Virus record (IMG/VR): IMGVR_UViG_2703718815_000003 | DNA: 64,000 nucleotides | Direction: 5' to 3' (one strand) | Source: a virus | Taxonomy: Duplodnaviria > Heunggongvirae > Uroviricota > Caudoviricetes | Part shown: in pieces, positions 2,514 through 57,160 of the stretch | How the letters are laid out: each line of letters begins with the position of its first letter | Position numbering within the stretch: position 1 is the first letter of the stretch | Notes under the pieces: generated by a model | What the model saw: the letters and a program-made list of their open reading frames with translations, nothing else | Database searches by the model: none | What the model was told of the DNA's origin: nothing | Translations under genes and position numbers: made by a program

Positions 2514-4199
2514 TCATTTAACGCATTTGAAAACGTATACGCTGACTGTGATCCCTGTGTCTTCAAACTCGTTGGTAAACGACTTCCCTCTGGCATAAAC
2601 GTAATTATCCATCGTCATCCAGTCCAGTATTGGCGCAGTGCCCGGCAATACTGCTACAAGACGCCCGCCGACTTTCAGATGCCCCAGCGCAGCCAGCGTG
2701 TGCTCTCTATGACGACCAAGCGAGTACGGCGGGTTCATAACGATTTTGTCGAACTGATAACCTGCGTTGTCCTCAGACCACTTTATGAAGTCGCAGCAAA
2801 TCGTGTTCGTATACCCTTTTCCAAGCAGGATATCAGCGAAGAGAGGTGCGATTTCTATGCAGGTAACATCTTCCAGATCGGCGTTAATATAGGCCAGAAG
2901 ATCCCCACGTCCGGCTTGAGGCTCCAGCAGCTTCTCACCAGGCTTCAATTCAGTGGCTCTGGCAACGTACTCAGCAATCAAGCGTGGGGTAGGGTAGAAC
3001 TGGTGTGATTTTGTATCCGGTATTAAACCGGTAGCCACAATCGTATTTAGCGTATGGCCGATGTCATACGGGAACTGCCAGTGCTTTTTCTCCTGCACGC
3101 CGCCAATGAAGCTCAGTGTGCGCTCAAGCTCTTCCACCTGCGACTTCTGGAGAGCTGAATCAGAGAAGTACCATACGCCTTTGTCTTTGCTCAATCGCCC
3201 GTCACGAAGCGCAGTGCGAACCGGCACGGAGATCGTCTTCTGGATTAACCCGAACTGCTTTGGTGCCCGTGTTTTTGGCGCAGTTCGGCATGGCGCGGGG
3301 ATTGCAGCAGGCATACTGTAAGCCAGCACCTCATTCAACTTCCAGGCCACGTCAGGATGTATTTCAAAGTGAACGTTGCCGTTCTTGAACATCTTCACGC
3401 GCATCAGATTTCCATCGACGTTCATCCAGTCACCGGTCTGGCAGTCGTTTGCTCGATACGCAGCTGATAGCACCTCAGCAGTGCGGTTGATGGTAATAAA
3501 TTCTTTGTGCGCGAAGAAATGAAGCAAGACACGCAGATCGTCGATGTAGTCCTCTTTGCGATAGTTCACGCTAACGCTGTCCCGCCAGAAATCAGAAATG
3601 CAGTCAGCGATTATCAGACGCTCGCTGAAACCGTTTGTCTTATTTGTCTTGTGCGCAGGACTCAGCGCCTTAAACAAGCCATACACGCGCTCAGAGAGAT
3701 ATTTGTGCCTGTCATTCAGCAAATTAAGCATCGTGGGTATGACCGTTTCTGCTTTGAACTCCGGTACACCAACGAACTCTTTAACCTTCATCTGGTAGCC
3801 GGTTCTGTCAGTTTTGATGACTTCCTGTTTGCCCTCTATAAACTGCTCGCGCCACTCATCTCGACGGGAAGCTGGCATGATCAGCAAAACGTTAGTCATG
3901 TCCGTGACCTTCCTCCAGTACTCGGCCCAAATATTCTGTTTCACCCATTCCAGATCGACTTTATCCAACCAACCTCGATTTAAACGCGAGCGATCTTCAT
4001 CTGGTCGATGGTTTAGTCTCAGCAGGCGATTAATCATGTTGTGGCGTTCGTCGCCATAAACGAAGTCGTGAACCTGATACATGAAGGCGATCTCTTTCTC
4101 GCACTCGGCCACAATTTCGTGGATGACGTTCATTTCCTGCCGATAGTCGATAGCAGTGTTTGAGTTGGCATCGTCGATGATGGAAAGGGCTGTATTCAT
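2514..4199 (-). CDS. DNA N6-adenine methyltransferase with large N-terminal domain of unknown function
   Basis: C-terminal ~190 aa carry FYPTP, LEPQAGRGDL (AdoMet-binding) and NPPY catalytic motifs; N-terminal ~370 aa unassigned. Confidence 0.6.
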   Translation of the reverse strand: MNTALSIIDDANSNTAIDYRQEMNVIHEIVAECEKEIAFMYQVHDFVYGDERHNMINRLLRLNHRPDEDRSRLNRGWLDKVDLEWVKQNIWAEYWRKVTDMTNVLLIMPASRRDEWREQFIEGKQEVIKTDRTGYQMKVKEFVGVPEFKAETVIPTMLNLLNDRHKYLSERVYGLFKALSPAHKTNKTNGFSERLIIADCISDFWRDSVSVNYRKEDYIDDLRVLLHFFAHKEFITINRTAEVLSAAYRANDCQTGDWMNVDGNLMRVKMFKNGNVHFEIHPDVAWKLNEVLAYSMPAAIPAPCRTAPKTRAPKQFGLIQKTISVPVRTALRDGRLSKDKGVWYFSDSALQKSQVEELERTLSFIGGVQEKKHWQFPYDIGHTLNTIVATGLIPDTKSHQFYPTPRLIAEYVARATELKPGEKLLEPQAGRGDLLAYINADLEDVTCIEIAPLFADILLGKGYTNTICCDFIKWSEDNAGYQFDKIVMNPPYSLGRHREHTLAALGHLKVGGRLVAVLPGTAPILDWMTMDNYVYARGKSFTNEFEDTGITVSVYVFKCVK

Positions 4200-4302
4200 A
4201 ATTGCACCATTAAGAAGTGATTTGTTTAATGGTGCAATTATTTCAAAAATGAAAAGGTACTAAATAGAAATAAACAGGCAATCCTTCAAATAAAGGCATT
4301 GG

Positions 4303-4974
4303 CTAATCATACTTGGAGGTATTTATCACCAGAATTTTGTTTGTATAAATCTTCTTAATATCCCATGTGACATTACCGGAATACCATTGACCGTTATATA
4401 CTTGGTTTCCAGTTGCACCTGTCATTGTTACATAGACAGGTCTGTCGTAATCGGTTCGTCTATAGTTATATACTCCAACCATAGCAGGCATTACCGCACA
4501 TGGATACCCCATATCTATTGTAAATTGAGGGTCAGAAATAGTGATAAGTTTCGCATCAAGGGGCATCATCTCACCGTGATACACCATTGCGCCTGCGCTG
4601 TTATACATGGCAATGCCATAGCCAGAATGTGGTAACACCATATCAGAAAAAGCATAAACTGTTATTGTTCCGGGGCTACCATTTACCTGATGCAATCTGA
4701 GAGCATTGTATCCGTTACTATGCTCATGAATAAACATCATGTTCGCCTTATTACTGCTTTTTATGAAAAAAAAACATGATTTGTTTGATGGGATTGATGT
4801 TTGAAAAACAGAACCTTTAGATGTAGACATTGTCCCTTTATTAATCAGATTTTGCGGAGTAAATTCTGGACTCATCCACAAACTTCCATCTGATTGAGTA
4901 ATTGACATCCCGAACATAATTATCCCCAGTATGTGTATATGTAAGAACCAAGCCCCGTATATAAATTTGACCAA
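4303..4974 (-). CDS. hypothetical protein (AT-rich gene; start uncertain, may begin at internal Met at 4917)
   Basis: 223-aa ORF, low GC, overlaps upstream ORF by 55 nt in another frame. Confidence 0.3.
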   Translation of the reverse strand: MVKFIYGAWFLHIHILGIIMFGMSITQSDGSLWMSPEFTPQNLINKGTMSTSKGSVFQTSIPSNKSCFFFIKSSNKANMMFIHEHSNGYNALRLHQVNGSPGTITVYAFSDMVLPHSGYGIAMYNSAGAMVYHGEMMPLDAKLITISDPQFTIDMGYPCAVMPAMVGVYNYRRTDYDRPVYVTMTGATGNQVYNGQWYSGNVTWDIKKIYTNKILVINTSKYD

Positions 4975-5201
4975 CTAACCGTATTTCCATTAATAGTAAC
5001 ATTTGGAACAGGTAAATTGATGTAGTTGTCGTTGTTAAGAGGCATTAATGACCACACGGCATGTAGTGATTTACCCGGTGGCGGATTAGAGTACGTCTTA
5101 GAGCCTGATGACGCCGTAAATCGATCAAGAAAAAAAATAGGTGTAAGGAAGCCAGTAACGTTAATTCCTTTATTGTTGTAAATCCCTGTACCGTATGACA
5201 T
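4920..5201 (-). CDS. hypothetical protein (AT-rich)
   Basis: 93-aa ORF; GGGTGA-like RBS upstream of ATG at 5201. Confidence 0.3.
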   Translation of the reverse strand: MSYGTGIYNNKGINVTGFLTPIFFLDRFTASSGSKTYSNPPPGKSLHAVWSLMPLNNDNYINLPVPNVTINGNTVSWSNLYTGLGSYIYTYWG

Positions 5202-5255
5202 TTTTCACCCTTGTTTTTATCAACACAATATGGCCGATCATGCGGCCATATCAGA

Positions 5256-5825
5256 TCAATTAGAGCTTTGAAAGACTTTGTGTGGTTGTGTTGCGAGGTT
5301 ATGTCGATGGCTTAACTCACGCATCATGTCTTCAAGCCGACTCTTTGTGTCGTCGAGTTGGTCGGCCATTGCTCCCAAAAGCTGACGAACGGCCATCGGA
5401 TCATCGCTGTTTAGTGATGGCATTTTATAACCCGCCTGAGAAGACATAAGATTGAACGCAGACATCAACATCGTTAGAGAGGATTTAAGCCCAGCAATTT
5501 CACGATCTTTGCTGGCAATAATCGCCTCACTCTTGTTAGTGTCATCAGTTCGTTGAGTCTCGCTCACCATATCCAAAGTCGCCTGCAACTTATCAGCGCG
5601 CTCTTTTTCAGCAAGATAATGAACACCGAAATGATGTGCTAAAGCTACAACCTGAGTTGGCTCTTCAAAGGTGGACTCAAAATTAAGTGCTGTAACCACT
5701 CTCTCAAATATGGAAACGTCTTCTATTCCTCGAAGAATGGCTAACATTTTGACCAGTTCATTAGCATCCATTTCTTCGAATAAGGCGTTTTGTTCATCAG
5801 CTATCGCTTTGCATTTCTTGCACAT
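5256..5825 (-). CDS. hypothetical protein
   Basis: 189-aa ORF; AAACAAGTTGTTT palindrome 20-30 nt upstream of start. Confidence 0.4.
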   Translation of the reverse strand: MCKKCKAIADEQNALFEEMDANELVKMLAILRGIEDVSIFERVVTALNFESTFEEPTQVVALAHHFGVHYLAEKERADKLQATLDMVSETQRTDDTNKSEAIIASKDREIAGLKSSLTMLMSAFNLMSSQAGYKMPSLNSDDPMAVRQLLGAMADQLDDTKSRLEDMMRELSHRHNLATQPHKVFQSSN

Positions 5826-6122
5826 GTGTTTTTCCTAATGCTTAAACAAGTTGTTTTCTTATTGGCTTTATTGTGATGTGGCATAAAAGGGGAGCAAGCT
5901 AAACGTAAAGGTGCAAACTCTCTATTTCGGTCAACGAAACACAAGGGCCATTTGGCCCTTGTCATTAACACGTTGCTTTACGGACTAGCGGATAAGCGAA
6001 GTAGATCGCCAGACCAATGAGGACGCCATCAGAAATGACAGACATCATCTTTCCCGTAAAATCCACCAACACCGCCATCACCAGAAGAGCAATGACGATC
6101 ACAAGCCGGAATCTCTCAAGCA

Positions 6123-6548
6123 TTAGAGATAAGCATCCAGTGACAACTGAAGCGCCTGGGCGATCTTTTTCAGTGCCTGCTCTTCTTGTTCACCAATGCC
6201 GTCCTGATCGGCAATATCAAGGCACAGACACAGAACATCGACCGCCTCTGGAGTACCCGCAATATCAGACAGCTCACGAATAGCCTGTGCATTAGCAGAA
6301 CGAGGGGACGCTTCGTAACGAGCACGGATATTGGCGCTCATTTGGGCAATTTCACCAGCAAACGGAGAAAACGCAGGCAGAGCTGCAATTGTCTTCTCAA
6401 GAATGGCAATTTCTTTTGCGTCACATGTGCCGTCGGCATAGGAGATCATGTACGCGCCCCACACGGTGGCCTCAACCGCATCACGGTTCTCCATTTTTTT
6501 GACTTCGATAACAGCTTTACGAGTTTTCTTTTTGAAGAAACCTAACAT
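6123..6548 (-). CDS. TerB-like domain protein
   Basis: 141-aa ORF; YADGTCDAKEIAILEK and C-terminal acidic helices resemble the TerB/DjlA-N fold; AGGAAA RBS. Confidence 0.45.
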   Translation of the reverse strand: MLGFFKKKTRKAVIEVKKMENRDAVEATVWGAYMISYADGTCDAKEIAILEKTIAALPAFSPFAGEIAQMSANIRARYEASPRSANAQAIRELSDIAGTPEAVDVLCLCLDIADQDGIGEQEEQALKKIAQALQLSLDAYL

Positions 6549-6641
6549 GTGCTTTCCTTTTATTATTTGTCAAAACAAGTTGTTTTCTAATTACATAAAT
6601 TGCTTACGCAGAGATGGTCAATGCATATGCACTAACAGCCG

Positions 6642-6830
6642 TCAGAAATAACCAAGTACCGAACCAACTGGAAAAACAAAAATCCCAACTACACGAGCCA
6701 AGGTCATGCCAGCCTGAAACTGGAGATCGCCAGAGCAAACAAGTTTTATAATGTTCGATACCCAACCGGCGGCCATAAGGGCAAGAATTGCCAGCCAAAT
6801 TTTTCCAAAGTGATTTGAAAACCAGTTCAT
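6642..6830 (-). CDS. small membrane protein
   Basis: 62-aa ORF with two hydrophobic helices. Confidence 0.3.
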   Translation of the reverse strand: MNWFSNHFGKIWLAILALMAAGWVSNIIKLVCSGDLQFQAGMTLARVVGIFVFPVGSVLGYF

Positions 6831-6839
6831 ACAACCGCC

Positions 6840-7334
6840 TTAGTCACAGCATGATCCTGAGTAACTGGATGAACTTGAGGTATCGCATCCACCGCCATCC
6901 CATCCAGAGTGACAGGACGCTCCACTGGAGTGGTGGTAATTGTCGTCGACGAAGGTGTGGTGATGGATGAATCCGGCATCAAAAGGCTCTGACCGGCTGG
7001 AACGGCTACCGTCGCCAGTGAAACTATAATGAGAACGTAGGCCATTGGTTTCAGCCTCTTTCTTTGAAAATTTTCCATTCGAACTGTCCTTGTTGTTTTT
7101 CTCCTTCACTAAAGGCCGTGCATTTTTCGCTTCGCGTGAAGAGCCAGAGGCAACAATCGCCCCCACGTTCGCAACAACTGACGCTTGATTATCTAAACGT
7201 TCATTCAGCAACCGAACGGTAGTCTCTAGTTCTTCAAGGCGTGACATAACACGACCGCTAAATAATTCGGCCAAAATTTGACGTAAAGAACGAGGGCGTT
7301 TAGTTACAGAAGTGAAATAGGTTTGACGTGCCAT
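6840..7334 (-). CDS. hypothetical protein (C-terminal half low-complexity; gene model uncertain)
   Basis: 164-aa ORF; N-terminal coiled-coil-like, C-terminal S/G/H/C-rich; overlapped by an alternative-frame ORF 6827..7078 that has a signal-peptide-like N-terminus. Confidence 0.3.
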   Translation of the reverse strand: MARQTYFTSVTKRPRSLRQILAELFSGRVMSRLEELETTVRLLNERLDNQASVVANVGAIVASGSSREAKNARPLVKEKNNKDSSNGKFSKKEAETNGLRSHYSFTGDGSRSSRSEPFDAGFIHHHTFVDDNYHHSSGASCHSGWDGGGCDTSSSSSYSGSCCD

Positions 7335-7354
7335 GTGGACTCCATCCAGTGTCA

Positions 7355-7385
7355 GAAAGAGTTGCGGCTGGCGATTGCCAGCCGC
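7355..7385 (-). terminator. stem-loop, candidate intrinsic terminator downstream of rnhA
   Basis: gcggctggc-gatt-gccagccgc 9-bp stem; flanked by T/A-rich sequence. Confidence 0.35.
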
Positions 7386-7482
7386 CTTTCTCGTTCCATC
7401 CTGGAACTGTGTCTTACCGACACATTGTCATCCTGACGCCGATAAGATACATGATTTAAAATGATAGGTAAACACTTACTTA

Positions 7483-8073
7483 CTATTTATTATAAACAAA
7501 ACCAATATCTTTCTTGTGAGGCATATCTGCTGCTGAAAAAGCTGCGATCTTCGCGAGTCGATCACATATTTCATTTTCACGATGCCCGGCGTGACCTTTA
7601 ACCCACTTCCAGCGAACATTATGTCGACTTGCGGCCTCATCCAGACGCTTCCACAGATCAACATTCTTTACCGGTTTTTTGTCAGAAGTCATCCATCCAT
7701 TGCGTTTCCACCATTTCATCCACTGTGTCATGCCGTTTTTCAGATACTGGCTATCAGAGTGCAAAATAACGTTGCATGGATATTTCAAACGCTCCAGCCC
7801 GATAAGTGCCCCCATCATCTCCATGCGGTTATTGGTGGTGCTATGAAAACCATCTGAGAACTCGCGTTCCTCACCACGATACTGGAGAACTATACCGTAA
7901 CCGCCCGGGCCACCCGGATTTTTAAGGCAAGAGCCATCACTGAAGATTTTCACGGTTTTAAGCTGGGGATTGAACTCTACGACAGGCGTTGTGGAATTGG
8001 TGCGGGGAGAATTTTTGTTTTTGGCTTTTTTGCGAGTTTTTTCTTGCGATCGGGCTGGTGTCTTCGTCGTCAT
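7483..8073 (-). CDS. rnhA: ribonuclease HI
   Basis: [47 protein letters not shown] motifs; start set at internal ATG 8073 with AGGAG RBS (ORF track extends to 8160). Confidence 0.85.
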
Positions 8074-8658
8074 ATAAACTCCTGAATCAAGCGCCGCGCC
8101 GATTTTTTTTCCTCGCGCGTGCGCACACGCGTGCGTGTTAATAATTATTAAAATAAACAAATTACTTCCCAGAACAGGTTTTTATAAACCTGAACTGAAC
8201 GAACGAAGTGAGTGAAGTTCACCTCGAACGAAGTGAGAGGTTGTCTTTTCAGGTAATACTCTCCCAGGGAGGTGAGTATAAAAATCCCTCACCAACCTGG
8301 TCGTTTCATAACCTGAAAAGTTATGGTCTAAGTCTACTGCCAGCTTAGACTTGGGAAGTTATGGATGACAGCACCCCAGAACCGAGATCTTCCCACACTT
8401 TATGAAGGGGAGTACTGGATTCAACCTCTCGAAACACCCCAGACTCGACAATCATAAAGTGACCCTTGTCTCCGCTCACTTTGGTTCCCCCTTCCCCGAC
8501 ACCTAAACGGCACCAGTTCTACGCTGGTAGTGAGCTTTTTTAAACCTGACGCCAGTGACGCTTACCCCCACCCATCAGGTCGAGTCTCCAGTCTACGACT
8601 GGAAACTATCAGATCTTAGCACTTACAATTCACTTTATGAATAGTTTGTACTTATCTA

Positions 8659-8913
8659 TCATTGTGATTGATTATTTTCTCTACCATGTAGTTGAACATT
8701 CAAGGCAAACACCTCATTGATCAACTCACCTAAAAGCTGTTCAACAAGTTCGCGATGCTCGCCAAGATGCAAGCACTTAATTGCCCATTCGTACAAGTTG
8801 AAAGCCTGCTCACGATCTTTCATCATTTCACGAGCCTGGGCCAGAAAATCGCTCTCTACGAGCGCAACGACATTAGTCGGGTATGACATGTTGGTTTCCT
8901 TAAAGTGGTTCAT
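8659..8913 (-). CDS. hypothetical protein
   Basis: 84-aa ORF. Confidence 0.35.
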   Translation of the reverse strand: MNHFKETNMSYPTNVVALVESDFLAQAREMMKDREQAFNLYEWAIKCLHLGEHRELVEQLLGELINEVFALNVQLHGRENNQSQ

Positions 8914-8994
8914 AAAATCGATTTTAAAGCGTCTGGGAAGGGGTTCTAGTGGATTCTGTAGTGATGTTCAGGTCTGGAGTCTCTGATACAAAAC

Positions 8995-9052
8995 AGCCTG
9001 CTTCCGTATATTAATAATTAATATGTAGTTATTTATATATACAGAAGCAGGC
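8995..9052. repeat. 57-bp palindromic element, copy 1 (cctgcttccgtatat / AT-rich spacer / atatacagaagcagg)
   Basis: 15-bp inverted repeat with one mismatch; near-identical element at 54318..54372. Confidence 0.6.
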
Positions 9053-9074
9053 TAATTACAGACGCCAGAACAAA

Positions 9075-9668
9075 CTAAGCAGCCTTCTTTGATGGTCTTT
9101 TTTTCCTGATCACATTCGCAGGATCATACCCTCCCAGACTTTTCATGACGTCCAAAGGGATCTTGCTTATAGAGTGCCCAGCGTCCTGACAGAATCCTCG
9201 AAAAACAACGAGCATACTGCCACCTGGGTTGATGTTTACTTCTACCTGACCCAGATTGACGTCAGGCTCGACAAACGCTACGCGGCCACCAGACAGAATA
9301 ATCGTCTCATTCGCACACTCTGTTGCACGCTCATACCACTTTGTATCTAGGGATTGAGGAATTAGCATCACTGTTGTAACTCCGCGAGCCTGCTCACGTA
9401 TAGCCGCATCAATCCAGGGGGAGATTTTGGAGTAGGGTGGATTGAGGAAGGCAATTGTACCTGGCTGTCCCCATTCAGATTTCAAAGCATCACGCTCAAC
9501 GCCTATGAAATTAGGCAGCTTTGCATTGTCCTTGTTGCAGGCAACGTCAACATCAAATGTCACTCCAAGATAACGTTGAATGGCAGAAAACAGCCAGTCA
9601 GGTGTTCTCCAGAGGTCACGAAGAGAGTTGTCGCGCTTTCGCTGTTTGATTTTTTCGGCTGCAATCAT
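9075..9668 (-). CDS. DNA N6-adenine methyltransferase, small phage type
   Basis: 197-aa ORF with NPPY catalytic tetrapeptide (AFLNPPYSK) in a small single-domain protein. Confidence 0.65.
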   Translation of the reverse strand: MIAAEKIKQRKRDNSLRDLWRTPDWLFSAIQRYLGVTFDVDVACNKDNAKLPNFIGVERDALKSEWGQPGTIAFLNPPYSKISPWIDAAIREQARGVTTVMLIPQSLDTKWYERATECANETIILSGGRVAFVEPDVNLGQVEVNINPGGSMLVVFRGFCQDAGHSISKIPLDVMKSLGGYDPANVIRKKRPSKKAA

Positions 9669-9733
9669 CTTCTTTCTCGATAGGTAAGTAAATACCTATT
9701 TTTGCATTTGATTTTATGTCTGGCAATCAAATA

Positions 9734-9851: not shown

Positions 9852-10661
9852 TCATCCAATAGTGTACTCCGCGACAAACTTCTTAACGATCGGTGATTCT
9901 TCGTTCAATGTTAGATTTCCACCGTCTCTAACGGCAATTCCTGTCGCTGGAAATACAGCCATCATTTGCCCAGCCTGAGTTGACGCAGTGTTAAGCGGAT
10001 ACGGTTTTTCTGGATTGCTCATTAAAGCAATCTTAATACTATTACTTGTAGCCTTCTTTTCTGTGAGAAGGTGTCTCATGGAAATTACCGTGTAAACACT
10101 AATATCTGGACCTCCGCTAAACCAATTAAGAAGGTTTAATATCTTATCCTTTGCTTTGACAGGCGCGTTATCGTAAGCGTCTAAAAAAATATCTTTCTCT
10201 AAACCCGCTTTATTGAAAAACGCATCATCTTTATCACTTAGAGCAAAACGAGGACCTCTTGCAGTACGCGCTTTTTTATTTGTGTTGCTATCATTTGACT
10301 GTTGAACTTTTAATTCATCATTAATCTCAACACACCCTTCAACCTCGATGATCCCCAACTGTTCTGGTTCGTTTTCGGCAGCTTCACCACTTTCAGCGTT
10401 AATTACGTTTATAGGCTCATGCGCTAACTCCAACTCATTTAAAGCTGAGCTGAAATCACCTGCTTTTTCTTCATTGAACAGTTCTTCGGCAACATCATCA
10501 GAACTCATGGCTACGCCAGCATCTAGGCCGAGCAGCAGATCGTCAATATCATCAGTATTTTCAACCTGTGCAGCTTTTTTTACTGGTTCATCAAGTGATT
10601 GCAACATGGCTGCCAGCTCGTCCAGATCATCATTTGTCATTACATTTTCAACCGAACTCAT
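9852..10661 (-). CDS. acidic hypothetical protein
   Basis: 269-aa ORF, D/E-rich N-terminal half. Confidence 0.4.
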   Translation of the reverse strand: MSSVENVMTNDDLDELAAMLQSLDEPVKKAAQVENTDDIDDLLLGLDAGVAMSSDDVAEELFNEEKAGDFSSALNELELAHEPINVINAESGEAAENEPEQLGIIEVEGCVEINDELKVQQSNDSNTNKKARTARGPRFALSDKDDAFFNKAGLEKDIFLDAYDNAPVKAKDKILNLLNWFSGGPDISVYTVISMRHLLTEKKATSNSIKIALMSNPEKPYPLNTASTQAGQMMAVFPATGIAVRDGGNLTLNEESPIVKKFVAEYTIG

Positions 10662-19837: not shown

Positions 19838-20581
19838 TTACCATGTTCCCCATATAGGGTTTTCCAATAATCTCGCCTCCAACGAATTGGCTACTATTGC
19901 CGTTTGCAACGTTGGTTGGGGATAGTTTGCAAAGTCTGAATACTCATTTTCCTGCGTGACACGTTTATCTGCGGCATGTTTAACACCACTTGCTATGAAA
20001 TGACGCATGATGCCCAATAGCCTCCGACTGTCTGCACTATCGTTTGCTAAAACATGAGGGAGCTGAAGTTCGATTTCTACCATTTCTCCATACTTACCAA
20101 CAAACTGTAGTTTGTCCGCACTGTACTTTTTATCCCTCCTTTGGATAAGGAAACCAGTAAAAGCATCACCTGGCGATGCCAAACTATCCACCCGCTTATT
20201 GGCAAGTCGAATAAGGTTCGTGAAAGCCATACAGTGATGCGCACCCATTCCCCCAAAGACCCCTTCGCTATTAATGTTAAGATCTTCAGTTTCATGGGAT
20301 GCAATAAACCCAGGCCCGACGTTGGGAAGATATCCCCCCTCAACAAAAGGATTAATCAGGATCGGCGCAATACATCCAGGTGGTAGTGATTTCAAACTTT
20401 GCATCAATGGCGTCTCGGATATTAGACCAAGCAACGCGGCGAATTGTACTCCGTCAATATTGTTGCTGCCCCACAGAATACGTGGAGCCGCACCATTGGA
20501 AGTATGCCCATTGATCAGTTTTATCGACTGCATCACTGCAAATACCTGCAAAAACTGCGAGCGGCTTAATTTAAACGACAT
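19838..20581 (-). CDS. hypothetical protein
   Basis: 247-aa ORF between resolvase-like gene and sbcC-like gene. Confidence 0.4.
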   Translation of the reverse strand: MSFKLSRSQFLQVFAVMQSIKLINGHTSNGAAPRILWGSNNIDGVQFAALLGLISETPLMQSLKSLPPGCIAPILINPFVEGGYLPNVGPGFIASHETEDLNINSEGVFGGMGAHHCMAFTNLIRLANKRVDSLASPGDAFTGFLIQRRDKKYSADKLQFVGKYGEMVEIELQLPHVLANDSADSRRLLGIMRHFIASGVKHAADKRVTQENEYSDFANYPQPTLQTAIVANSLEARLLENPIWGTW

Positions 20582-22487
20582 AGCTGCGCCCCTCTTTAAC
20601 TTCCAGCGTAATAGTTTCCCGGAACCATGACTTCATCTCTTTATGGGAGATAATCAGCACAGTACCTCGCTCGCGAGCTTTGGACTCCAGAATACCCATG
20701 AGGCGTTCAAGACCGGCTGTATCGAGTGCATCGTCAATTTCGTCGCCGATAAACAAATCGATGTTTTTACTCGCCCGGTTACTAACCAGATCCTGCAATG
20801 CCAAAGAACACGCAATGCGAACCTTCCGCTTCTCACCACCAGAGAGGGTCTGGAACGACTTACTTGAACCTTTCTTCTGCACACTAATGTTGAATTTGTC
20901 GCGATACTCACCTTTTTTAGTGACATCCATCGTCGACCACTCAGCAGTAATATTCCCGTCAGACAACGTATTGAGATACTCGGCAGTGCGTGTATTCAGG
21001 AAAGGCGTAACAGACGTCAAAATATGAGAACGCACCCCGGCAGGAGAGTAGACCTGACGAGCTTTTTCCAATAGCAACGTTTGTTCCTGAATAGCCTTCA
21101 ACTCATCTTTTAAGGACTTGAAGGTAGACTTACTGGATACCAAGTTATCTTCGTGTCTGGCGATAAGAGCAATAAACGGATTAATCTCTTTTGATATACG
21201 ATCGACCTCAGTACGAGCACGAGTCACAAGAGACTCAATAGCAACAACCTCCTTCTCACGATGACGCAAAGATGAGAGTTGTTTCGTAAGCTCTTCAATC
21301 CGGGCAATGATAGCCGTTACATCAGGTGTCGTTTTAACAAGGGCAGACTCAATGCTTAACGCTTTCTCAAGATTCGTTTTGTGTTTAGCCATTGCCTCTG
21401 CAAGTGTCTTCGCCTGACCAATTTCCTGACGTGCTTGTTCAATGAAATTCTCCTTCACCGTTGATAGATCTTCTTCGCAGTAGGCTTTGCCACAAGTAGG
21501 GCATGGTGATCCTACTTTAGTACCAACCTCTTCTGCTTTGGTCTTAAAATTGCGCGCGCGGCTCATTGCATCAGCCTGACTATTTTCTGTAGCTTTGATG
21601 CTTGCCCGAATATCAGTTATCGCACCACGAACTTTGAGCAACTTGGCGTCATGTTCTTCTTTTGAGGCTAACTTTTTGCGCTCACTTTCGATTGCCTTCT
21701 CGGTATCACGTATCTGTTCGGGAAGAGTGCGGATCTCAAGTTCAACTTCCGTTAACTCAACTTCGGCACTGGCCAGCCCAGCCAGGGCATCGTCATAACG
21801 TTTAGAACGCTCTTGCTCCCATGATTCAGAGGAGGCTTTCGCTGACTCAATTTCTGACTGTGTTGCCTCAATGGTCGAGATTGTCGACTCCAATTTGGTT
21901 TTAACCACATCCATACGTGCGGCAGCTGCATTAGCTCGCTCACGAGCAATAGCGTAGGCGCGTGTCAGTCTGTCAACGCCAGCGGCTTCTTCTACGATGG
22001 TTTTGAGGTTTTTGTCGGACATTCCAGGTAAATCTGGCATAGCTTCTTGGCTCGCATAGATGGAAGCCATGAAAACCTCTTTAGATGCACCGATCAGACG
22101 CTCGACGAACTCCTGCGTCAGCGCATCTTTGCCTTTCGTCATATCGCCATCTTCACCACGAACGATAAGACGATTTTTGAACTCTTTGTGTTTACGGTGA
22201 CGAATGATTGCGTATCTCTTGCCTTCATCCTCGATGGTTACTGCAACACGACAGTTCTTTTCATGGTCGGTAGACAACACATCGTCACCCTTCACACCAT
22301 GAGCTGTTTCGCCATAAAGACACCACATCAGGCTATTCATTAGAGTTGACTTTCCAGAGCCATTACTTGATGCGGAACTATCATCACTATTAACACCCTG
22401 AATAAGCACTAAACCACGCTGATCTAACTCGACCTCCGCGCTGGCGATAGCCATAAAATTCTCAACCTGGAGCTTTAAAAACTTCAT
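20571..22487 (-). CDS. SbcC/Rad50-like recombination ATPase
   Basis: N-terminal Walker A NGSGKST, long coiled-coil with central CPTCG zinc hook, C-terminal ABC signature region. Confidence 0.75.
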   Translation of the reverse strand: MKFLKLQVENFMAIASAEVELDQRGLVLIQGVNSDDSSASSNGSGKSTLMNSLMWCLYGETAHGVKGDDVLSTDHEKNCRVAVTIEDEGKRYAIIRHRKHKEFKNRLIVRGEDGDMTKGKDALTQEFVERLIGASKEVFMASIYASQEAMPDLPGMSDKNLKTIVEEAAGVDRLTRAYAIARERANAAAARMDVVKTKLESTISTIEATQSEIESAKASSESWEQERSKRYDDALAGLASAEVELTEVELEIRTLPEQIRDTEKAIESERKKLASKEEHDAKLLKVRGAITDIRASIKATENSQADAMSRARNFKTKAEEVGTKVGSPCPTCGKAYCEEDLSTVKENFIEQARQEIGQAKTLAEAMAKHKTNLEKALSIESALVKTTPDVTAIIARIEELTKQLSSLRHREKEVVAIESLVTRARTEVDRISKEINPFIALIARHEDNLVSSKSTFKSLKDELKAIQEQTLLLEKARQVYSPAGVRSHILTSVTPFLNTRTAEYLNTLSDGNITAEWSTMDVTKKGEYRDKFNISVQKKGSSKSFQTLSGGEKRKVRIACSLALQDLVSNRASKNIDLFIGDEIDDALDTAGLERLMGILESKARERGTVLIISHKEMKSWFRETITLEVKEGRSYVV

Positions 22488-22716
22488 ATAACACCTCTGA
22501 TACCGTGTGTTAGCTTTTGGCCTTCTTTCAATCTGAACTCCGTATGCGCCGGGAAGGATCTGCGCCTCAATACGCCTTTTCTTGTTAACCTTCCAAGATA
22601 AAACGCTACGGGATTTCCTTGTGGCGGGTAGGGCTTGTGAAACATCACCGTCTGGCCTCGTTCAAGTCTTTTCATCGTGATGGCAAAGTCTCGAAAGCTC
22701 CCATAACGACTTTGCT

Positions 22717-23802
22717 TCACACAGCCTCCGAACTCTCCGCTTCGGTGAGGATTTCCTGACACAAAATATCCAATTTGCTCAGATCAAATCCGCCGTCAGT
22801 ATCGTGGACAATCTTGCAATAAGCAGATACCGACTCTCCCAGGCTATCGATTTTGCTGGTTTCAGTTGTGCTGGCTGTCCCTTCCATCATTGATGACTTA
22901 CGGATGAAGTTGCACACGACACCTTTTGCACCCATTGTTTTGAGGATGTTCTGGTACTTAATGCCTTCTTCATCGTTCTCAATTACGGCGCGGAAACGCA
23001 CGTAGTTGCCGCGAATTTGGTCATCAGCAACATCATCTTCCAGGTTAATGAATTTAGGCGCACTGGTTTCGTAGTGACTGAAACTGCCGTCCGGGTTTAC
23101 GATCATGTAGCCAGCCAGAGATCCAACATCTCCCCAATTTTGATGAGTCAGTGCACCGACACTGATAACTCCAGGAATGACCTCTTTGTGGTTGTGGTAA
23201 TGCCCACTAAGCACGAGACGAAAGCCGATATCCTTTAACTCCTGCGCATCGATACCGACGTCAGGCATTGTTGGAATGGCTTTGTTAATGGATGTATGGA
23301 TAACAACGTCATGATTATCACCTTCTACGCTCTTACGTAATGCTTTCAGATCGCTGATAAGCTCCGCATGATTGTTACGCCAGCTAATCAGGTGGACAGT
23401 CACATCACCAATTTTTATTGAGTGTGGGCGCTTGCCACATACGATTACCACGCCGATAGAACTCAGCGATGCTGCTGCGTTGGCGCTATATACTGAATCG
23501 TTGGTTTCAAGATCGTGATTACCGGCCAGCATTACTACTGTCAGATCAAGCTCGTTGATAATCCACTTGTACGTTTCAGTTACGTAATGCAAAACAGAAG
23601 GGGACACAGTTCCTCGGACGTGAAATGTATCACCGGCAACCAACATGTACTTACAACCGGCCTTCTTCATGGCGATGGCTGCTTCTTTCGTTGCTTCCAA
23701 CTGTATTTCAAGTCTGGAGTTAAGCCCCTCAGCGTTCGTCGTGGAGAACGCATCCCATTTGTGGTAGTGGCAGTCAGAAATGACGCCGTATGGCAAAGTC
23801 AT
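22717..23802 (-). CDS. SbcD/Mre11-like nuclease
   Basis: calcineurin-like phosphoesterase motifs AGDTFH, GNHD, SGHYHNH. Confidence 0.8.
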   Translation of the reverse strand: MTLPYGVISDCHYHKWDAFSTTNAEGLNSRLEIQLEATKEAAIAMKKAGCKYMLVAGDTFHVRGTVSPSVLHYVTETYKWIINELDLTVVMLAGNHDLETNDSVYSANAAASLSSIGVVIVCGKRPHSIKIGDVTVHLISWRNNHAELISDLKALRKSVEGDNHDVVIHTSINKAIPTMPDVGIDAQELKDIGFRLVLSGHYHNHKEVIPGVISVGALTHQNWGDVGSLAGYMIVNPDGSFSHYETSAPKFINLEDDVADDQIRGNYVRFRAVIENDEEGIKYQNILKTMGAKGVVCNFIRKSSMMEGTASTTETSKIDSLGESVSAYCKIVHDTDGGFDLSKLDILCQEILTEAESSEAV

Positions 23803-24701: not shown

Positions 24702-24787
24702 ATGTCATTTTTCTGTGATTGTTAGCCGAGGCAACGATAACCCACCAGGTGCGCCGAAGGTAGTAAATGCCTGTTTTAATTATTCAC

Positions 24788-24861
24788 ATATCCACAGGAT
24801 AGATCCTAATAAAGAGATCCATAGATAGATCCTTGTATAGATCAAATAAGATCCCCGATCG
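24788..24861. promoter_or_regulatory. origin-like region: DnaA-box-like ATATCCACA followed by six GATC sites
   Basis: ATATCCACA at 24788..24796; GATC at 24802, 24817, 24829, 24841, 24851, 24858, five in AGATCC context at roughly helical spacing. Confidence 0.55.
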
Positions 24862-24900
24862 CTGTAAGCCGCGCCACGACTGGTCTGAAGCCATGTTCAT

Positions 24901-25002
24901 GTATGCTGTCAGCGGTAATTGATAGTCTGTCAGCGGTTCACCGTATGCTGCCAACTGTTTTTGGTATTCTGTCAGCGGCAAATCAAGTATGCTGTCAGCG
25001 GT
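24901..25002 (+). repeat. iteron array upstream of repA (5 direct repeats of GTATGCTGTCAGCGGT)
   Basis: copies at 24901, 24925, 24943, 24966, 24987, spaced 18-24 bp. Confidence 0.8.
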
Positions 25003-25022: not shown

Positions 25023-26117
25023 ATGTCCACAAAAAATAAAAAAGGTAAAAATAACAAAGAAGTAGAAGATAATCTCGACAACTTTGAAGAAGGTTCCCTT
25101 GAATTGTACACAGGGGAACTTGTCCCTAATAGCAACAATACAGTCCAACCAATTGCGTTGATGCGGCTGGGATTGTTCGTGCCCACGCTCAAGGGGACAA
25201 AATACAGCAAGCGTAACAAGCCAAATGAGATCGATGCTTCAAAGGAGCTTGTTCAGCTCGAAGTAGCCCGTTCTGAAGGCTATTCCGATATCAAGATAAC
25301 CGGTCCTCGTCTCGACATGGATCATGATTTCAAAACGTGGGTGGGCGTTGTGCGTTCGCTGGCAGAATACGGCGAACCTAACGGTCGTGTCGAGTTAAGC
25401 ATCACGAAATTTGCGAAGTTTTGTGGCTATCCATCGTCACAGATCCGCAAAACACTCCGCGACCGGCTTACAAACAGTCTTTTGAAGATCATGCGTACAA
25501 CTCTGTCTTTCCAGAGAACGTATGAAGAAAAGAACGTCGACGGCTCTAACAAGATCTCGCTTCTGATGGTGCACCTCATCAATAGCGTGGACTACAACGA
25601 GCAGAAAGATACGGTGGTGTTCTATGCAGAACCGAAGCTGGCCGAACTATATCGCTTTGACCATAAGGTTCTTTTGCAGTTAAAGGTTATCAATAAGCTA
25701 CCACGCAAAGAAACAGCACAGGCTCTGTACACCTTCATCGAAAGTCTTCCAACCAAGCCTGCGCCGGTATCGCTTGCTCGATTGCGTGCGCGACTCAATT
25801 TGAGTAGCAGGAATGTCAGCTCGCAGAATCAGACTATACGCAACGGCTTAAAAGCTCTCCAAGATTTGGGTTATCTCGAATACAGCGAGATTAAGCGAGG
25901 GCGGTCGATCTATATCCAGATTCACAGCCGCAATCCAAAACTCAAAGTCGCACCGCCAAAACCTGAAGACATCGAACCCAAAAAACTAGATGAGAAAGCT
26001 GGGGAAATTGATGCCAAACAGAACATTATCAACAAGATAACCGAACTTTCGCAGAATTTGACGCCTGAAAATATCAAGATGATTGAGATCCTTTCCAATA
26101 GTCTCAAACTGCTTTGA
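25023..26117 (+). CDS. repA: iteron-binding replication initiator RepA-like protein
   Basis: only long plus-strand ORF here; bracketed by direct-repeat arrays; start placed at ATG 25023 after last upstream iteron (ORF track starts at 24903 inside the iterons). Confidence 0.65.
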   Translation: MSTKNKKGKNNKEVEDNLDNFEEGSLELYTGELVPNSNNTVQPIALMRLGLFVPTLKGTKYSKRNKPNEIDASKELVQLEVARSEGYSDIKITGPRLDMDHDFKTWVGVVRSLAEYGEPNGRVELSITKFAKFCGYPSSQIRKTLRDRLTNSLLKIMRTTLSFQRTYEEKNVDGSNKISLLMVHLINSVDYNEQKDTVVFYAEPKLAELYRFDHKVLLQLKVINKLPRKETAQALYTFIESLPTKPAPVSLARLRARLNLSSRNVSSQNQTIRNGLKALQDLGYLEYSEIKRGRSIYIQIHSRNPKLKVAPPKPEDIEPKKLDEKAGEIDAKQNIINKITELSQNLTPENIKMIEILSNSLKLL

Positions 26118-46138: not shown

Positions 46139-46225
46139 TGGCGGAGAGTAATGGAATCGAACCATCATCGCTTGCGCAATGGGACGGTTTTCAAGACCGC
46201 TTGAGCACCATGCTCCCTACTCTCC
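46139..46225 (-). tRNA. tRNA-Ser (anticodon UGA), CCA encoded
   Basis: manual fold: acceptor GGAGAGT/ACTCTCC, anticodon loop CTTGAAA, long variable arm, T-loop TTCGATT. Confidence 0.75.
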
Positions 46226-46438
46226 AGTTGTTGTGGTGCCGGGGGCTTCCCGGTGTCCTTTGGCTGGTTATCCACCGTGGACGGAGCCAATAGTCATCAC
46301 AAAGGATCAATATAACCATTTCCCCGCGTGCGCTTAGCCGCATTCACCACAACGAAAAGAGCACTGTATGACGTTTGCACGGACTTACGCTTAAAACAGG
46401 GCAGTCTCGGCGGTTCTCAATGCTCTTTCCTGTTGTGT

Positions 46439-46514
46439 TGGTGCCGGTTAACGGATTCGAACCGCCGACCATTCGCTTACAAGGCGACTGCTCTACCAAC
46501 TGAGCTAAACCGGC
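46439..46514 (-). tRNA. tRNA-Thr (anticodon UGU), CCA encoded
   Basis: manual fold: acceptor GCCGGTT/AACCGGC, D-arm GCTCAGTTGGTAGAGC, anticodon loop CTTGTAA, T-loop TTCGAAT. Confidence 0.75.
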
Positions 46515-46518
46515 AATT

Positions 46519-46605
46519 TGGTGGGGAGTGATGGAGTCGAACCACCCGAGTCGCAATGACAGTAGATTTACAGTCTACACCGCTACCTCTACGGACTAAC
46601 TCCCC
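46519..46605 (-). tRNA. tRNA-Tyr (anticodon GUA), CCA encoded
   Basis: manual fold: acceptor GGGGAGT/ACTCCCC, anticodon stem GTAGA/TCTAC with loop CTGTAAA, long variable arm. Confidence 0.75.
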
Positions 46606-46610
46606 TAAAT

Positions 46611-46685
46611 TGGCGATGGTGGGTGGATTCGAACCACCGACCAGTTGGTTAACAGCCAACTGCTCTACCGCTGAGCTACACCATC
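46611..46685 (-). tRNA. tRNA-Asn (anticodon GUU), CCA encoded
   Basis: manual fold: acceptor GATGGTG/CACCATC, anticodon stem GTTGG/CCAAC with loop CTGTTAA, T-loop TTCGAAT. Confidence 0.75.
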
Positions 46686-54386: not shown

Positions 54387-56090
54387 TTAATTATTAAGCA
54401 ATCTGCTCACACGTAGTTTGTTAAGACTTGATCTAGAGGCCAGTTTCGTTAATGCACCTATTGCTTTATTCGTGATTTTTTGCTGTTCTTCTGTTAGTTC
54501 TTGCATACTTTTGAATCTGAGCAACCCCTTTCTCACTAAATCCAAAGCATCCTGATTGCGGGATAATATCCACTTTAAATAATCATCTTCAGAGAAACTG
54601 TTAAGATATGCTATGTCACTATGATTAAATTTGCCTTCAATTATTTTGTATAAAACATTCTCTAAATTAGTCTCTTCAGGCTTCTTATTCATCAATTTTT
54701 TTTGAATTAGCAGACCTAACTTTTCGTTACCAAATATCTCTACATACAAATTCCGAAAAGCAGTATAAGCATCATCTTGGCTAACAAAGGCATCTGCATA
54801 TGCCTCTATATAACTATCACAATCAATCTCCAATCTATTTAAGATATCAATCAAGCCTATGAAGTGAGCAACAGGTATGTGTGAAAGATTGTCGTTAATT
54901 ACACATTTTATCTTAGAAATAAACTCAGATTCATTGTCCTTGAATGAGTCACTAAAAATATCCCAAACATTGTTAACCTCACATAAAGCCTTGTGTTCTT
55001 TATATTGTTTATTTTTTTCTTCTATTATACCTCGAATATTGCTTTCAGTAGAAAGATAACCATTCTTGAGATAAAAATCTATGTCATCATCGAAAGCAAT
55101 TTCCGCTCGTTCATAAATAATATCAAGACTATTAATAAATGAATATACAGAATCATCCTTTTTATCATCTAACATGTAATCAAATACATGTATGTTTTTA
55201 ATTGATTCTTTAAACAAGGCATAATCAACACCTGGAACACCAGAATAGTAAACCACTGAAAACAGAACCAATCTATTGATAAAACTTTCTCTAACCTTAT
55301 CCTCTGCCAAGCTTAGCTCATTCCTAAGATTAACCAGAGATGTTTTTATTTTATTTAATATACGGATATTTTTAATGCCTAAGTCATTTGCTAAGACTTT
55401 TAACAAAAGAAAATCAGAATCAGTTTCATAAAAAACTTTACGTAAGTTCTTCTCAGGCGTAGGATCGTATTTTATTTCGACATCAATTACTTTTTCTCTG
55501 TACTCTAAAAACTGTTTTTTTGCAGTTTCATCATGTAAATTATCTTCATTTAAAATTAGAACAACTTTGCAGCCTTTTCTTCTTGCCAATTCATCAATTA
55601 CCCCCATAATTTCTTTAACTTCTAGCGAATTACCTTTTCTTTCAACATCATCAATACAAACCAAATAATTATTAACAAATTTATACTCAAGAGATGACAG
55701 CAGGTTATCTGTTTTGAACCCAAAAAAATCGTTCTTTCCGAAATGTATTAAAAATTTTGACAAGGAGTTGTATTTCAACCATCCCAAAAACCCATTTCTA
55801 TAACGAATCATAGTTCGATCCGTTTCAGATAAAATTAGTTCTTTATATTTCTTTTCATTAATTGGTGTGGCACAATGATAAAGAGCTTTTTTAATATCAC
55901 CAATAGAGTTAACCCCAAACAAAGAAACATACGAATATGCATTAAAATCTAATCCTTCAGAATGCTTAGTATAAAAACTATTCCAATAATGAGTTTTACC
56001 AACGCCCCAATCTCCTTTTATGACGGCAACCCGATGATCTGAAACTAGAAAATTTTTTAGAAATGATTCTATCGATTCCATTAGTATCAA
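54387..56090 (-). CDS. KAP-family P-loop NTPase
   Basis: KAP-type Walker A GDWGVGKT and Walker B-like LVCIDDVER; gene markedly more AT-rich than neighbours. Confidence 0.6.
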   Translation of the reverse strand: MILMESIESFLKNFLVSDHRVAVIKGDWGVGKTHYWNSFYTKHSEGLDFNAYSYVSLFGVNSIGDIKKALYHCATPINEKKYKELILSETDRTMIRYRNGFLGWLKYNSLSKFLIHFGKNDFFGFKTDNLLSSLEYKFVNNYLVCIDDVERKGNSLEVKEIMGVIDELARRKGCKVVLILNEDNLHDETAKKQFLEYREKVIDVEIKYDPTPEKNLRKVFYETDSDFLLLKVLANDLGIKNIRILNKIKTSLVNLRNELSLAEDKVRESFINRLVLFSVVYYSGVPGVDYALFKESIKNIHVFDYMLDDKKDDSVYSFINSLDIIYERAEIAFDDDIDFYLKNGYLSTESNIRGIIEEKNKQYKEHKALCEVNNVWDIFSDSFKDNESEFISKIKCVINDNLSHIPVAHFIGLIDILNRLEIDCDSYIEAYADAFVSQDDAYTAFRNLYVEIFGNEKLGLLIQKKLMNKKPEETNLENVLYKIIEGKFNHSDIAYLNSFSEDDYLKWILSRNQDALDLVRKGLLRFKSMQELTEEQQKITNKAIGALTKLASRSSLNKLRVSRLLNN

Positions 56091-56102
56091 TCCTTTAATT
56101 CA

Positions 56103-56129
56103 TATATTGGGCGTAACAAACGCCCAATA
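56103..56129. repeat. hairpin/palindrome between parG-like gene and KAP NTPase gene
   Basis: atattgggcg-taacaaa-cgcccaatat 10-bp inverted repeat. Confidence 0.5.
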
Positions 56130-56132
56130 TAA

Positions 56133-56492
56133 TCAACCTTTCTTCATCAACTCTCGTTTAATTTCATCGGTACGCATCGTAACGTCGGCAGCTGTGATCG
56201 CCTCGTTAAGCTTCACGATGTCCTCGATTTCCTGCGGTGACTTCTCTGCCAGATGGAAAATGGCTGCTCGAATCACGTCAGAACGAGTGAACTTCTCGAA
56301 GCGAGGGATGAACTTCATCATCTCCAGCAGTTCGAAGTATTCGTCCTCCAGTGACATTGTGCGGCTTTTAATTTTCTCTTTGCCACGAGTCGGGCGTCCC
56401 TGTGGTCTGACTGGTTGGCGCAAAGGAGTTGTGTTCTTAGCCGGTGCATCAGGCTCTTTGCGCTTTGCTAGGTCACCCATTTTCATGGACAT
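56133..56492 (-). CDS. ParG/ParB-like small partition protein (RHH-type, tentative)
   Basis: 119 aa; basic disordered N-terminus, C-terminal strand-helix-helix-like segment; start overlaps parA stop. Confidence 0.45.
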   Translation of the reverse strand: MSMKMGDLAKRKEPDAPAKNTTPLRQPVRPQGRPTRGKEKIKSRTMSLEDEYFELLEMMKFIPRFEKFTRSDVIRAAIFHLAEKSPQEIEDIVKLNEAITAADVTMRTDEIKRELMKKG

Positions 56493-57160
56493 TATTCTTC
56501 TTCCTCCAGACTCAACAGATAATCTACAAATTCTTCAAACTCGGCTTCCGCCTTTTTGTCGCGCTCGCTACCGGTCATTTCAAAGATAGAACGACCAGAC
56601 TCTTCCGCATCATCATAGACGTTGCGGTTATATAGATTGACTGGCGCAGACTCGATTCCAAACGTCTCAACAATCTCTTTAGCCGCCAGAATGCGAGACA
56701 CTTGTGATGGCAAAGCCGGGCACTGGTTCATGACCGCGCGGACCTTCACTTTATCGTTTACATTGCGAACATTGTCGATAATAGGATCGATGTCACGTAA
56801 AGATTTCAAATCACGACGCTTAGGACGCAGCGGGATAATGATAACGTCAGCCATCAGCATCGCTTGTCGCTGAATTTCGGAGTCGAAGCCACCAGCATCT
56901 ACCACTACAAACTCAGCTCTACCCTGAAGCGATTTTAGGTGCTTAATGATGTCATCCTGAACGTATGCAAAAGGAATCAGCTCAAGGTCTTCGTTCTGTC
57001 GACGGTCTTCACACCAGCTCGTTGTCGTGCGCTGAATATCTATATCGGTAATATAAACCTTCTTCTTCTTTTTGACTTTCAGGCAAACGGCAATTTGCTG
57101 GGCAACGGTGGATTTGCCAGGCCCGCCCTTTGTGCCGCCAACCACAAAGATCTTGGTCAT
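56492..57160 (-). CDS. parA: ParA-family partition ATPase (small type Ib)
   Basis: deviant Walker A VVGGTKGGPGKST, Walker B FVVVDAGG. Confidence 0.8.
   Translation of the reverse strand: MTKIFVVGGTKGGPGKSTVAQQIAVCLKVKKKKKVYITDIDIQRTTTSWCEDRRQNEDLELIPFAYVQDDIIKHLKSLQGRAEFVVVDAGGFDSEIQRQAMLMADVIIIPLRPKRRDLKSLRDIDPIIDNVRNVNDKVKVRAVMNQCPALPSQVSRILAAKEIVETFGIESAPVNLYNRNVYDDAEESGRSIFEMTGSERDKKAEAEFEEFVDYLLSLEEEE

Follow-up and report, generated by a model that had tools for sequence, protein, structure and literature searches.

Two orphan DNA methyltransferase genes of an SSU5-type phage-plasmid and their probable role in protection from host restriction

Why a phage-plasmid should carry two adenine methyltransferase genes of its own is the question raised by the virus record IMGVR_UViG_2703718815_000003 (IMG/VR; Caudoviricetes), of which a stretch of 64,000 nt was analysed here (hereafter, the window). 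Two open reading frames (ORFs) encode proteins with an NPPY motif, and both are present as described in the initial annotation, namely a 561-aa protein (2514..4199) and a 197-aa protein (9075..9668), each on the minus strand. With a GATC-rich, origin-like region in the same window, it had been suggested that one of these enzymes may couple methylation to replication control or protect against host restriction. Our analysis points to protection as the best-supported role, given the orphan context of the genes and the lack of a restriction partner in the flanking ORFs. We consider it probable that both genes encode orphan DNA N6-adenine methyltransferases that shield the DNA of the element from host restriction.

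Two orphan genes in an SSU5-type phage-plasmid

The 8-kb stretch around the two genes displays 99.2 % identity to Escherichia phage CMS-2020a, 98.7 % identity to phage Cyrano and ~83 % identity over 60 % of its length to Salmonella phage SSU5. It also matches 704 plasmid records from Escherichia, Klebsiella, Salmonella and Enterobacter, mostly non-mobilizable and ~105–113 kb in size. On the basis of these matches, we assign the window to an SSU5-type phage-plasmid. Both methylase genes are kept across SSU5-like elements of E. coli, Salmonella and Klebsiella, and both proteins are, judging by sequence, catalogued members of known phage methyltransferase families. Public records already contain near-identical, annotated sequences, in which the 561-aa gene is called ‘DUF4942 domain-containing protein’ or ‘DNA methyltransferase’ and the 197-aa gene ‘phage N-6-adenine-methyltransferase’.

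The two genes belong to one long leftward gene block, a DNA-metabolism operon that also encodes a dihydrofolate reductase, a DnaQ-like exonuclease, RNase HI, a TerB/TciA-like protein and Ead/Ea22-like proteins. Pfam and PADLOC scans of the flanking ORFs returned no nuclease, specificity-subunit, helicase or defence-system match, and the ORFs flanking the 197-aa gene (8659-8913 and 9852-10661) gave no Pfam or PADLOC match. PADLOC matches were confined to the methyltransferase domains themselves (mad2, Type II methyltransferase and ‘orphan methyltransferase’ models). As the flanking ORFs gave no nuclease matches, neither enzyme appears to have a restriction partner. Two distant homologues of the 561-aa protein, one from Variovorax and the other from an Enterobacterales genome, are positioned in the early regions of lambdoid prophages, where they adjoin other orphan methylases (PF01555 and PF00145), again without nucleases. 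An orphan setting of this kind in phages and prophages is the usual signature of self-protective phage methylases.

The GATC content of the window is in keeping with this. GATC occurs 267 times (observed/expected ratio 0.85) and is not avoided; this would be anticipated if the DNA were methylated and not under selection for the loss of sites. Palindrome avoidance was also considered as a footprint of restriction and was rejected, since only CTAG is depleted (observed/expected ratio 0.37), as is usual in enterobacterial DNA.

The T1-Dam-family enzyme and the P1-like origin

The 197-aa protein is a T1-Dam-family phage N6-adenine methyltransferase (PHROG 111), matching both PF05869 (Dam; E value 2.5e-38, 131.8 bits against a cutoff of 28.1) and the NCBIfam equivalog TIGR01712 (phage_N6A_met; 113.9 bits against a cutoff of 97.05). 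It is a small, single-domain enzyme without a separate recognition domain, and its NPPY motif (residues 76-79, nt 9432-9443) is intact. With family models matched above their cutoffs and no nuclease partner matched, the earlier description of this protein as a solo phage adenine methylase is upheld. The protein is 100 % identical to its CMS-2020a counterpart, while tblastn returned 39 % identity to the dam of a Stx-converting phage and ~30 % to that of the T1-like phage Tls, with related genes in 1,979 phage records. A search of PDB sequences yielded no match for the 197-aa protein, and neither protein of the window matched PF02086 (the D12 class, comprising alpha-class enzymes such as EcoDam, T4Dam and P1 Dmt) at E ≤0.01.

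The target of the 197-aa enzyme is most likely GATC, modified to G(m6A)TC, because the characterised PF05869 relatives methylate this site. Phi93_04 (M.Phi93DAM) of Lactococcus phage phi93, whose PF05869 membership was checked here, is 30 % identical to the 197-aa protein (E value 3e-17, NPPY aligned), and single-molecule real-time (SMRT) sequencing, DpnI/DpnII digestion and heterologous expression have demonstrated that it makes G6mATC (PMC4190342). M.EcoT1Dam is likewise a G6mATC enzyme, and M.Btr190III, a 35 %-identical relative, methylates GATC with some off-target activity (PMC4996451). With these enzymes and the Stx-phage Dam, the 197-aa protein shares an N-terminal D-x-W-x-TP motif, the NPPY motif, carriage by phages and orphan status, although the 197-aa enzyme has a C-terminus ~40–55 residues longer than that of M.Phi93DAM (140 aa). 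As identity to any characterised member of the family is only 27–39 %, GATC specificity is a prediction from the family, and the enzyme may show relaxed fidelity similar to that of M.Btr190III. Membership of the non-specific methylases Hia5 and Hin1523 in PF05869, which would have weakened the GATC prediction, was considered and rejected, as they are EcoDam/T4Dam-like (PMC3299994); being EcoDam-like, Hia5 has no bearing on this prediction.

Just upstream of the start of the 197-aa gene, and following a hairpin and T-run 3′ of the preceding gene, lies a weak promoter-like site (9698..9726, minus strand; TTGCCA-17-AAAAAT with TG). It was detected by consensus scan only, and its score in that scan did not exceed shuffle expectation.

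The GATC-rich, origin-like region noted at the outset proved to be real. A P1 oriR-type plasmid origin was recognized at 24780..25002 on the plus strand, based on its feature layout and on alignment to the annotated P1 oriR. A consensus DnaA box (24780) is followed by six GATC sites (24802-24857), a GC-rich spacer (GCCGCGCCACG), five iterons with ~21-bp spacing (24897-25002) and then the repA initiator gene (Rep3_N; 25023..26117, plus strand), whose product displays 43.5 % identity to P1/P7 RepA. Random placement of GATC equalled this clustering of six sites within 56 bp in only 32 of 20,000 trials. The origin core is homologous to P1 oriR: the two are collinear and share long stretches of identity across the DnaA boxes, GATC heptamers and GC-rich spacer; the iteron sequences differ from those of P1. 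The five oriR GATC sites are annotated as Dam methylation sites in the P1 record, and the Klebsiella, SSU5 and Cyrano relatives likewise have a GATC cluster at the origin.

Cyrano and SSU5, whose methylase regions are near-identical or closely related to that of the window, encode a different RepA (48 % identical) and possess other iterons; the replicon module has therefore undergone exchange within this group of phage-plasmids. A second cluster of five GATC sites is present in both (positions 9-50 of the Cyrano origin sequence, L009, and 7-48 of that of SSU5, L010), ~590–630 bp upstream of repA and with the same 12-12-10-7 spacing as the origin core of the window. It lies well upstream of the iteron-adjacent core, in which several heptamers have decayed to GAACC or GACCC, and may represent either a remnant or an additional origin core.

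The parallel with P1 extends beyond the origin. P1 is also a phage-plasmid with a DnaA box, a GATC heptamer cluster, iterons and repA, and it has its own GATC methylase, as is presumed here. Genes resembling P1 tciA and tciB are found near the methylase genes in both elements; in the window, TciA/TciB-like genes (5965-6548) lie between the two methylase genes, an echo of the dmt-tciABC neighbourhood of P1. Sequestration by SeqA and a need for GATC methylation are known for the P1 origin, and Abeles and Austin are said to have found in 1987 that P1 plasmid replication needs methylated DNA. P1 Dmt has been described as a large EcoDam-like fusion protein, unlike the candidate here, which is a minimal PF05869 enzyme without a PF02086 match. 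Methylation dependence is a feature of the P1 origin, to which the SSU5-type origin is likened by its sequence.

These features raise the possibility that the phage Dam serves mainly to control replication or establishment. In such a scheme, the origin GATC cluster, and possibly the packaging sites, would be kept fully methylated, rendering origin firing and SeqA sequestration independent of host Dam levels; this would be compatible with an anti-restriction role. The collinearity of the origin core with P1 oriR and its annotated Dam sites, the relatedness of the RepA proteins, the statistically unusual GATC cluster and its retention at the origins of the relatives all speak for such a scheme, as does the fact that P1 likewise carries a GATC methylase. 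However, enterobacterial hosts have Dam, so a plasmid origin would be methylated in any case. Moreover, the dam gene is positioned within the DNA-metabolism operon, 15 kb from the origin and outside the rep/par module, and PF05869 Dam genes occur commonly in phages without a plasmid origin, such as T1-like, Stx and lactococcal phages. The GATC methylase encoded by P1 itself, dmt, is non-essential in a dam+ host (PMC10695390). On balance, we regard replication control as a possible but unlikely main function of the enzyme; a coupling to replication as a secondary benefit is plausible by analogy with P1, and we propose it with similarly limited confidence.

The 561-aa enzyme and its DUF4942 region

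The 561-aa protein (PF13708) matches the PHROG 6263 ‘DNA methyltransferase’ profile end to end (residues 1-561 against profile positions 1-548, E value 1.8e-298) and displays 99 % identity to a database cluster of 1384 member sequences (P0001, ‘DUF4942 domain-containing protein’). The initial annotation envisaged an FYPTP/NPPY catalytic domain fused to a large unassigned N-terminal region. The fusion is borne out, whereas ‘unassigned’ no longer applies: a profile search of the N-terminal region revealed a catalogued Pfam domain, DUF4942 (PF13708; E value 1.7e-20, 74 bits against a cutoff of 25), covering residues 140-295 (3315..3782, minus strand).

The catalytic Rossmann-fold domain occupies residues 396-561 (2514..3014, minus strand) and contains motif X (FYPTP; residues 401-405, nt 2985-2999), motif I (EPQAGRGD; residues 426-433, nt 2901-2924) and motif IV (NPPY; residues 489-492, nt 2724-2735). 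By its QFYPTP signature and its X-I-IV motif order, the domain is assigned to the gamma class, with TaqI- and HsdM-like enzymes. In an AlphaFold model built from a 26-sequence alignment (predicted local distance difference test score of 81), the last ~165 residues superpose on Rossmann-fold methyltransferases, including the DNA N6-methyladenine (m6A) enzymes M.TaqI, M.BseCI and CamA. Against PDB sequences, the 561-aa protein showed only marginal similarity (M.TaqI, E value 0.11), and PF02384 (N6_Mtase), the commonest weak match in the family (23 of 26 members), scored 13.3 bits for the 561-aa protein, under the cutoff of 20.4.

The methyltransferase domain (residues ~397-520) also recurs within giant phage proteins of 1,200–3,900 aa (PHROGs 9133, 15406, 11358 and 10691). 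Some of these, from Pseudomonas phages, are labelled as structural proteins or as internal proteins of the virion, reminiscent of P1 DarB and other injected anti-restriction proteins.

In M.TaqI, M.BseCI and CamA, the target-recognition domain is C-terminal to the catalytic domain. The 561-aa enzyme is unlike these in that its catalytic domain comes last, with no TaqI-like recognition domain after it, and is preceded by the ~395-aa DUF4942-containing region (residues 1-395; 3015..4199, minus strand). This region consists of a helical bundle (residues 20-121), the conserved DUF4942 core and a variable small alpha/beta domain (residues ~320-390); the N-terminal model is confident, yet no solved structural relative was found for it. 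As no recognition domain follows the catalytic domain, the N-terminal ~395 residues, DUF4942 included, would supply DNA binding and target recognition to the C-terminal gamma-class catalysis.

This arrangement appears to be the standard architecture of the family and no peculiarity of this element. When residues 1-395 alone were searched against 1.84 billion representative proteins, 612 clusters (at 50 % identity) were matched, so the family comprises at least 612 clusters. Among the best 150 matches, 135 are at least 480 aa in length, and 132 of these 135 have an NPP[YFW] motif near the C-terminus. The family is confined to phages and prophages, and Aeromonas and Pseudomonas phages encode full-length homologues of the 561-aa protein.

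Mean pairwise identity in the family is 0.545 in the DUF4942 core and 0.526 in the methyltransferase core, while residues 1-80, 306-395 and 526-561 are variable; the invariant residues of the DUF4942 region, many of them polar, include H183, T185, N186, D221, R223, D262, H277 and H281. Given that the two cores are equally conserved, DUF4942 perhaps has a role other than target recognition, such as a second enzymatic function, oligomerization or docking to a replisome, packaging or host factor. The sequence specificity of the catalytic domain would then be relaxed or absent. The lack of a solved structural relative and the reuse of the same methyltransferase domain in giant phage proteins would fit such a role, as would the listing of DUF4942-annotated proteins, known by annotation alone, in pathogenicity islands (L0010/orf56 of the SRL island). 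However, with a terminal catalytic domain and no recognition domain, the N-terminal part must hold the DNA. In addition, inspection by eye of the invariant N-terminal residues revealed no convincing PD-(D/E)xK or HNH/beta-beta-alpha-metal pattern, and a Pfam scan of the region returned no match besides DUF4942. The variable segments (residues 306-395 and 526-561) could also confer specificity, one possibility being that DUF4942 is a conserved DNA-clamping scaffold; a different role altogether is another possibility. We consider a DUF4942 region that takes no part in recognition unlikely. Still more doubtful, in our estimation, is that the DUF4942-containing region represents a new kind of DNA-engaging module for gamma-class methyltransferases, conferring broad or context-dependent methylation or a second activity.

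A substrate other than DNA, i.e. methylation of RNA or protein by a METTL5-, RsmD- or HemK-like enzyme, is very improbable. The Q-F-Y-P-T-P motif X preceding motif I is the signature of HsdM, Type IIG and TaqI enzymes, PF02384 is the commonest weak match in the family and the PADLOC Type II methyltransferase and mad2 models match the domain; furthermore, the prophage copies adjoin other DNA methylases, and the distribution is limited to phages and prophages.

It is very unlikely that one of the enzymes supplies the modification activity of a restriction-modification system or of another defence system based on methylation (Type I, Type IIG or MADS-like): the catalytic domain does match PADLOC mad2 (PDLC04134; E value 2e-15) and the Type II methyltransferase models, and one phage homologue (H96) is labelled ‘RE endonuclease’, but the matches span the methyltransferase domain only, no nuclease, specificity-subunit or helicase match was obtained in any flanking ORF, and the distant homologues also reside in an orphan context. 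Mad2 itself has a methyltransferase domain after an N-terminal region (~265 aa in Mad2), but the other MADS genes are absent here. Compared with Type I HsdM and Type IIG modules, the 561-aa protein differs in its sub-cutoff PF02384 score, and no HsdS, HsdR or nuclease domain match was obtained here.

Directly upstream of the 561-aa gene, a perfect 14-bp inverted repeat (4200-4239; AATTGCACCATTAA-N12-TTAATGGTGCAATT) ends at the ATG. Only its right arm (ATGGTGCAAT) is kept in SSU5 and the Klebsiella phage, so the repeat is probably not a conserved regulatory hairpin or element.

Probable self-protection, neighbouring genes and wider meaning

Under the self-protective reading that we favour, both enzymes would methylate the DNA of the element itself, which would then survive restriction on entering a new cell. 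The 197-aa enzyme would make G(m6A)TC and top up host Dam during rapid lytic replication, with the side benefit of keeping the P1-type origin core fully methylated. What the analysis shows is the family membership of the two proteins, their intact motifs, the methyltransferase fold, the lack of a nuclease partner and the occurrence in phages and prophages, from which DNA as the substrate, GATC specificity, the part played by the N-terminal region and a selective advantage against restriction are inferred.

Several points weigh against this reading. The literature on SSU5 or pHCM2 methylation and on T1 Dam yielded no experimental data on either protein of the element, and that on DUF4942 yielded annotation-table mentions only, with no characterised member found. 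The equal conservation of the DUF4942 and catalytic cores is unusual for a target-recognition domain, and the top structural match of the catalytic domain is METTL5, an rRNA m6A enzyme, which leaves a small probability for an RNA substrate. E. coli, Salmonella and Klebsiella have their own Dam, and the 197-aa enzyme may be redundant, since these hosts already methylate GATC. The dispensability of P1 dmt in a dam+ host (PMC10695390) counts in the same direction.

Elsewhere in the window, a number of features suggest gene acquisition or additional functions. Between the two methylase genes, a pair of ORFs on the minus strand (4303-5201) lies in a stretch of lower GC content (0.41) and displays ~78 % DNA identity to ‘membrane-associated / outer membrane protein’ genes of the unrelated coliphages JenP1 and BRET; the pair looks like a mobile moron. 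A low-GC island (54387-57160, minus strand; GC content 0.33 over 54–56 kb vs ~0.46 elsewhere) encodes a 567-aa product with a weak match to KAP-family P-loop NTPases and has a gene for a ParA/MipZ-like ATPase as its neighbour; cargo gained by horizontal transfer or a defence gene is a possible interpretation. Immediately to the left of the origin (20571-23802, minus strand), an SbcC/Rad50-like ATPase (638 aa) is paired with an SbcD-like metallophosphoesterase (361 aa), and a cluster of four tRNA genes (Ser-TGA, Thr-TGT, Tyr-GTA and Asn-GTT) is located at 46139-46685 on the minus strand.

SSU5-type phage-plasmids occur widely among E. coli, Salmonella and Klebsiella, and resistance genes can ride on them (PMC9600943). 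For the biology of these elements, the orphan methylases probably help them to overcome restriction when they pass from one strain to another. The combination of a P1-like origin and a phage Dam makes a tidy parallel to P1 and introduces no new principle. The sole question of wider interest is the role of DUF4942, a conventional domain-of-unknown-function problem. If the DUF4942 enzyme were indeed broad, acting for example on replicating or single-stranded phage DNA, one enzyme would serve against many restriction systems and would shield these phage-plasmids as well as many prophages. A target motif for one DUF4942 enzyme would, in turn, assign specificity to hundreds of annotated ‘DUF4942 domain-containing proteins’.

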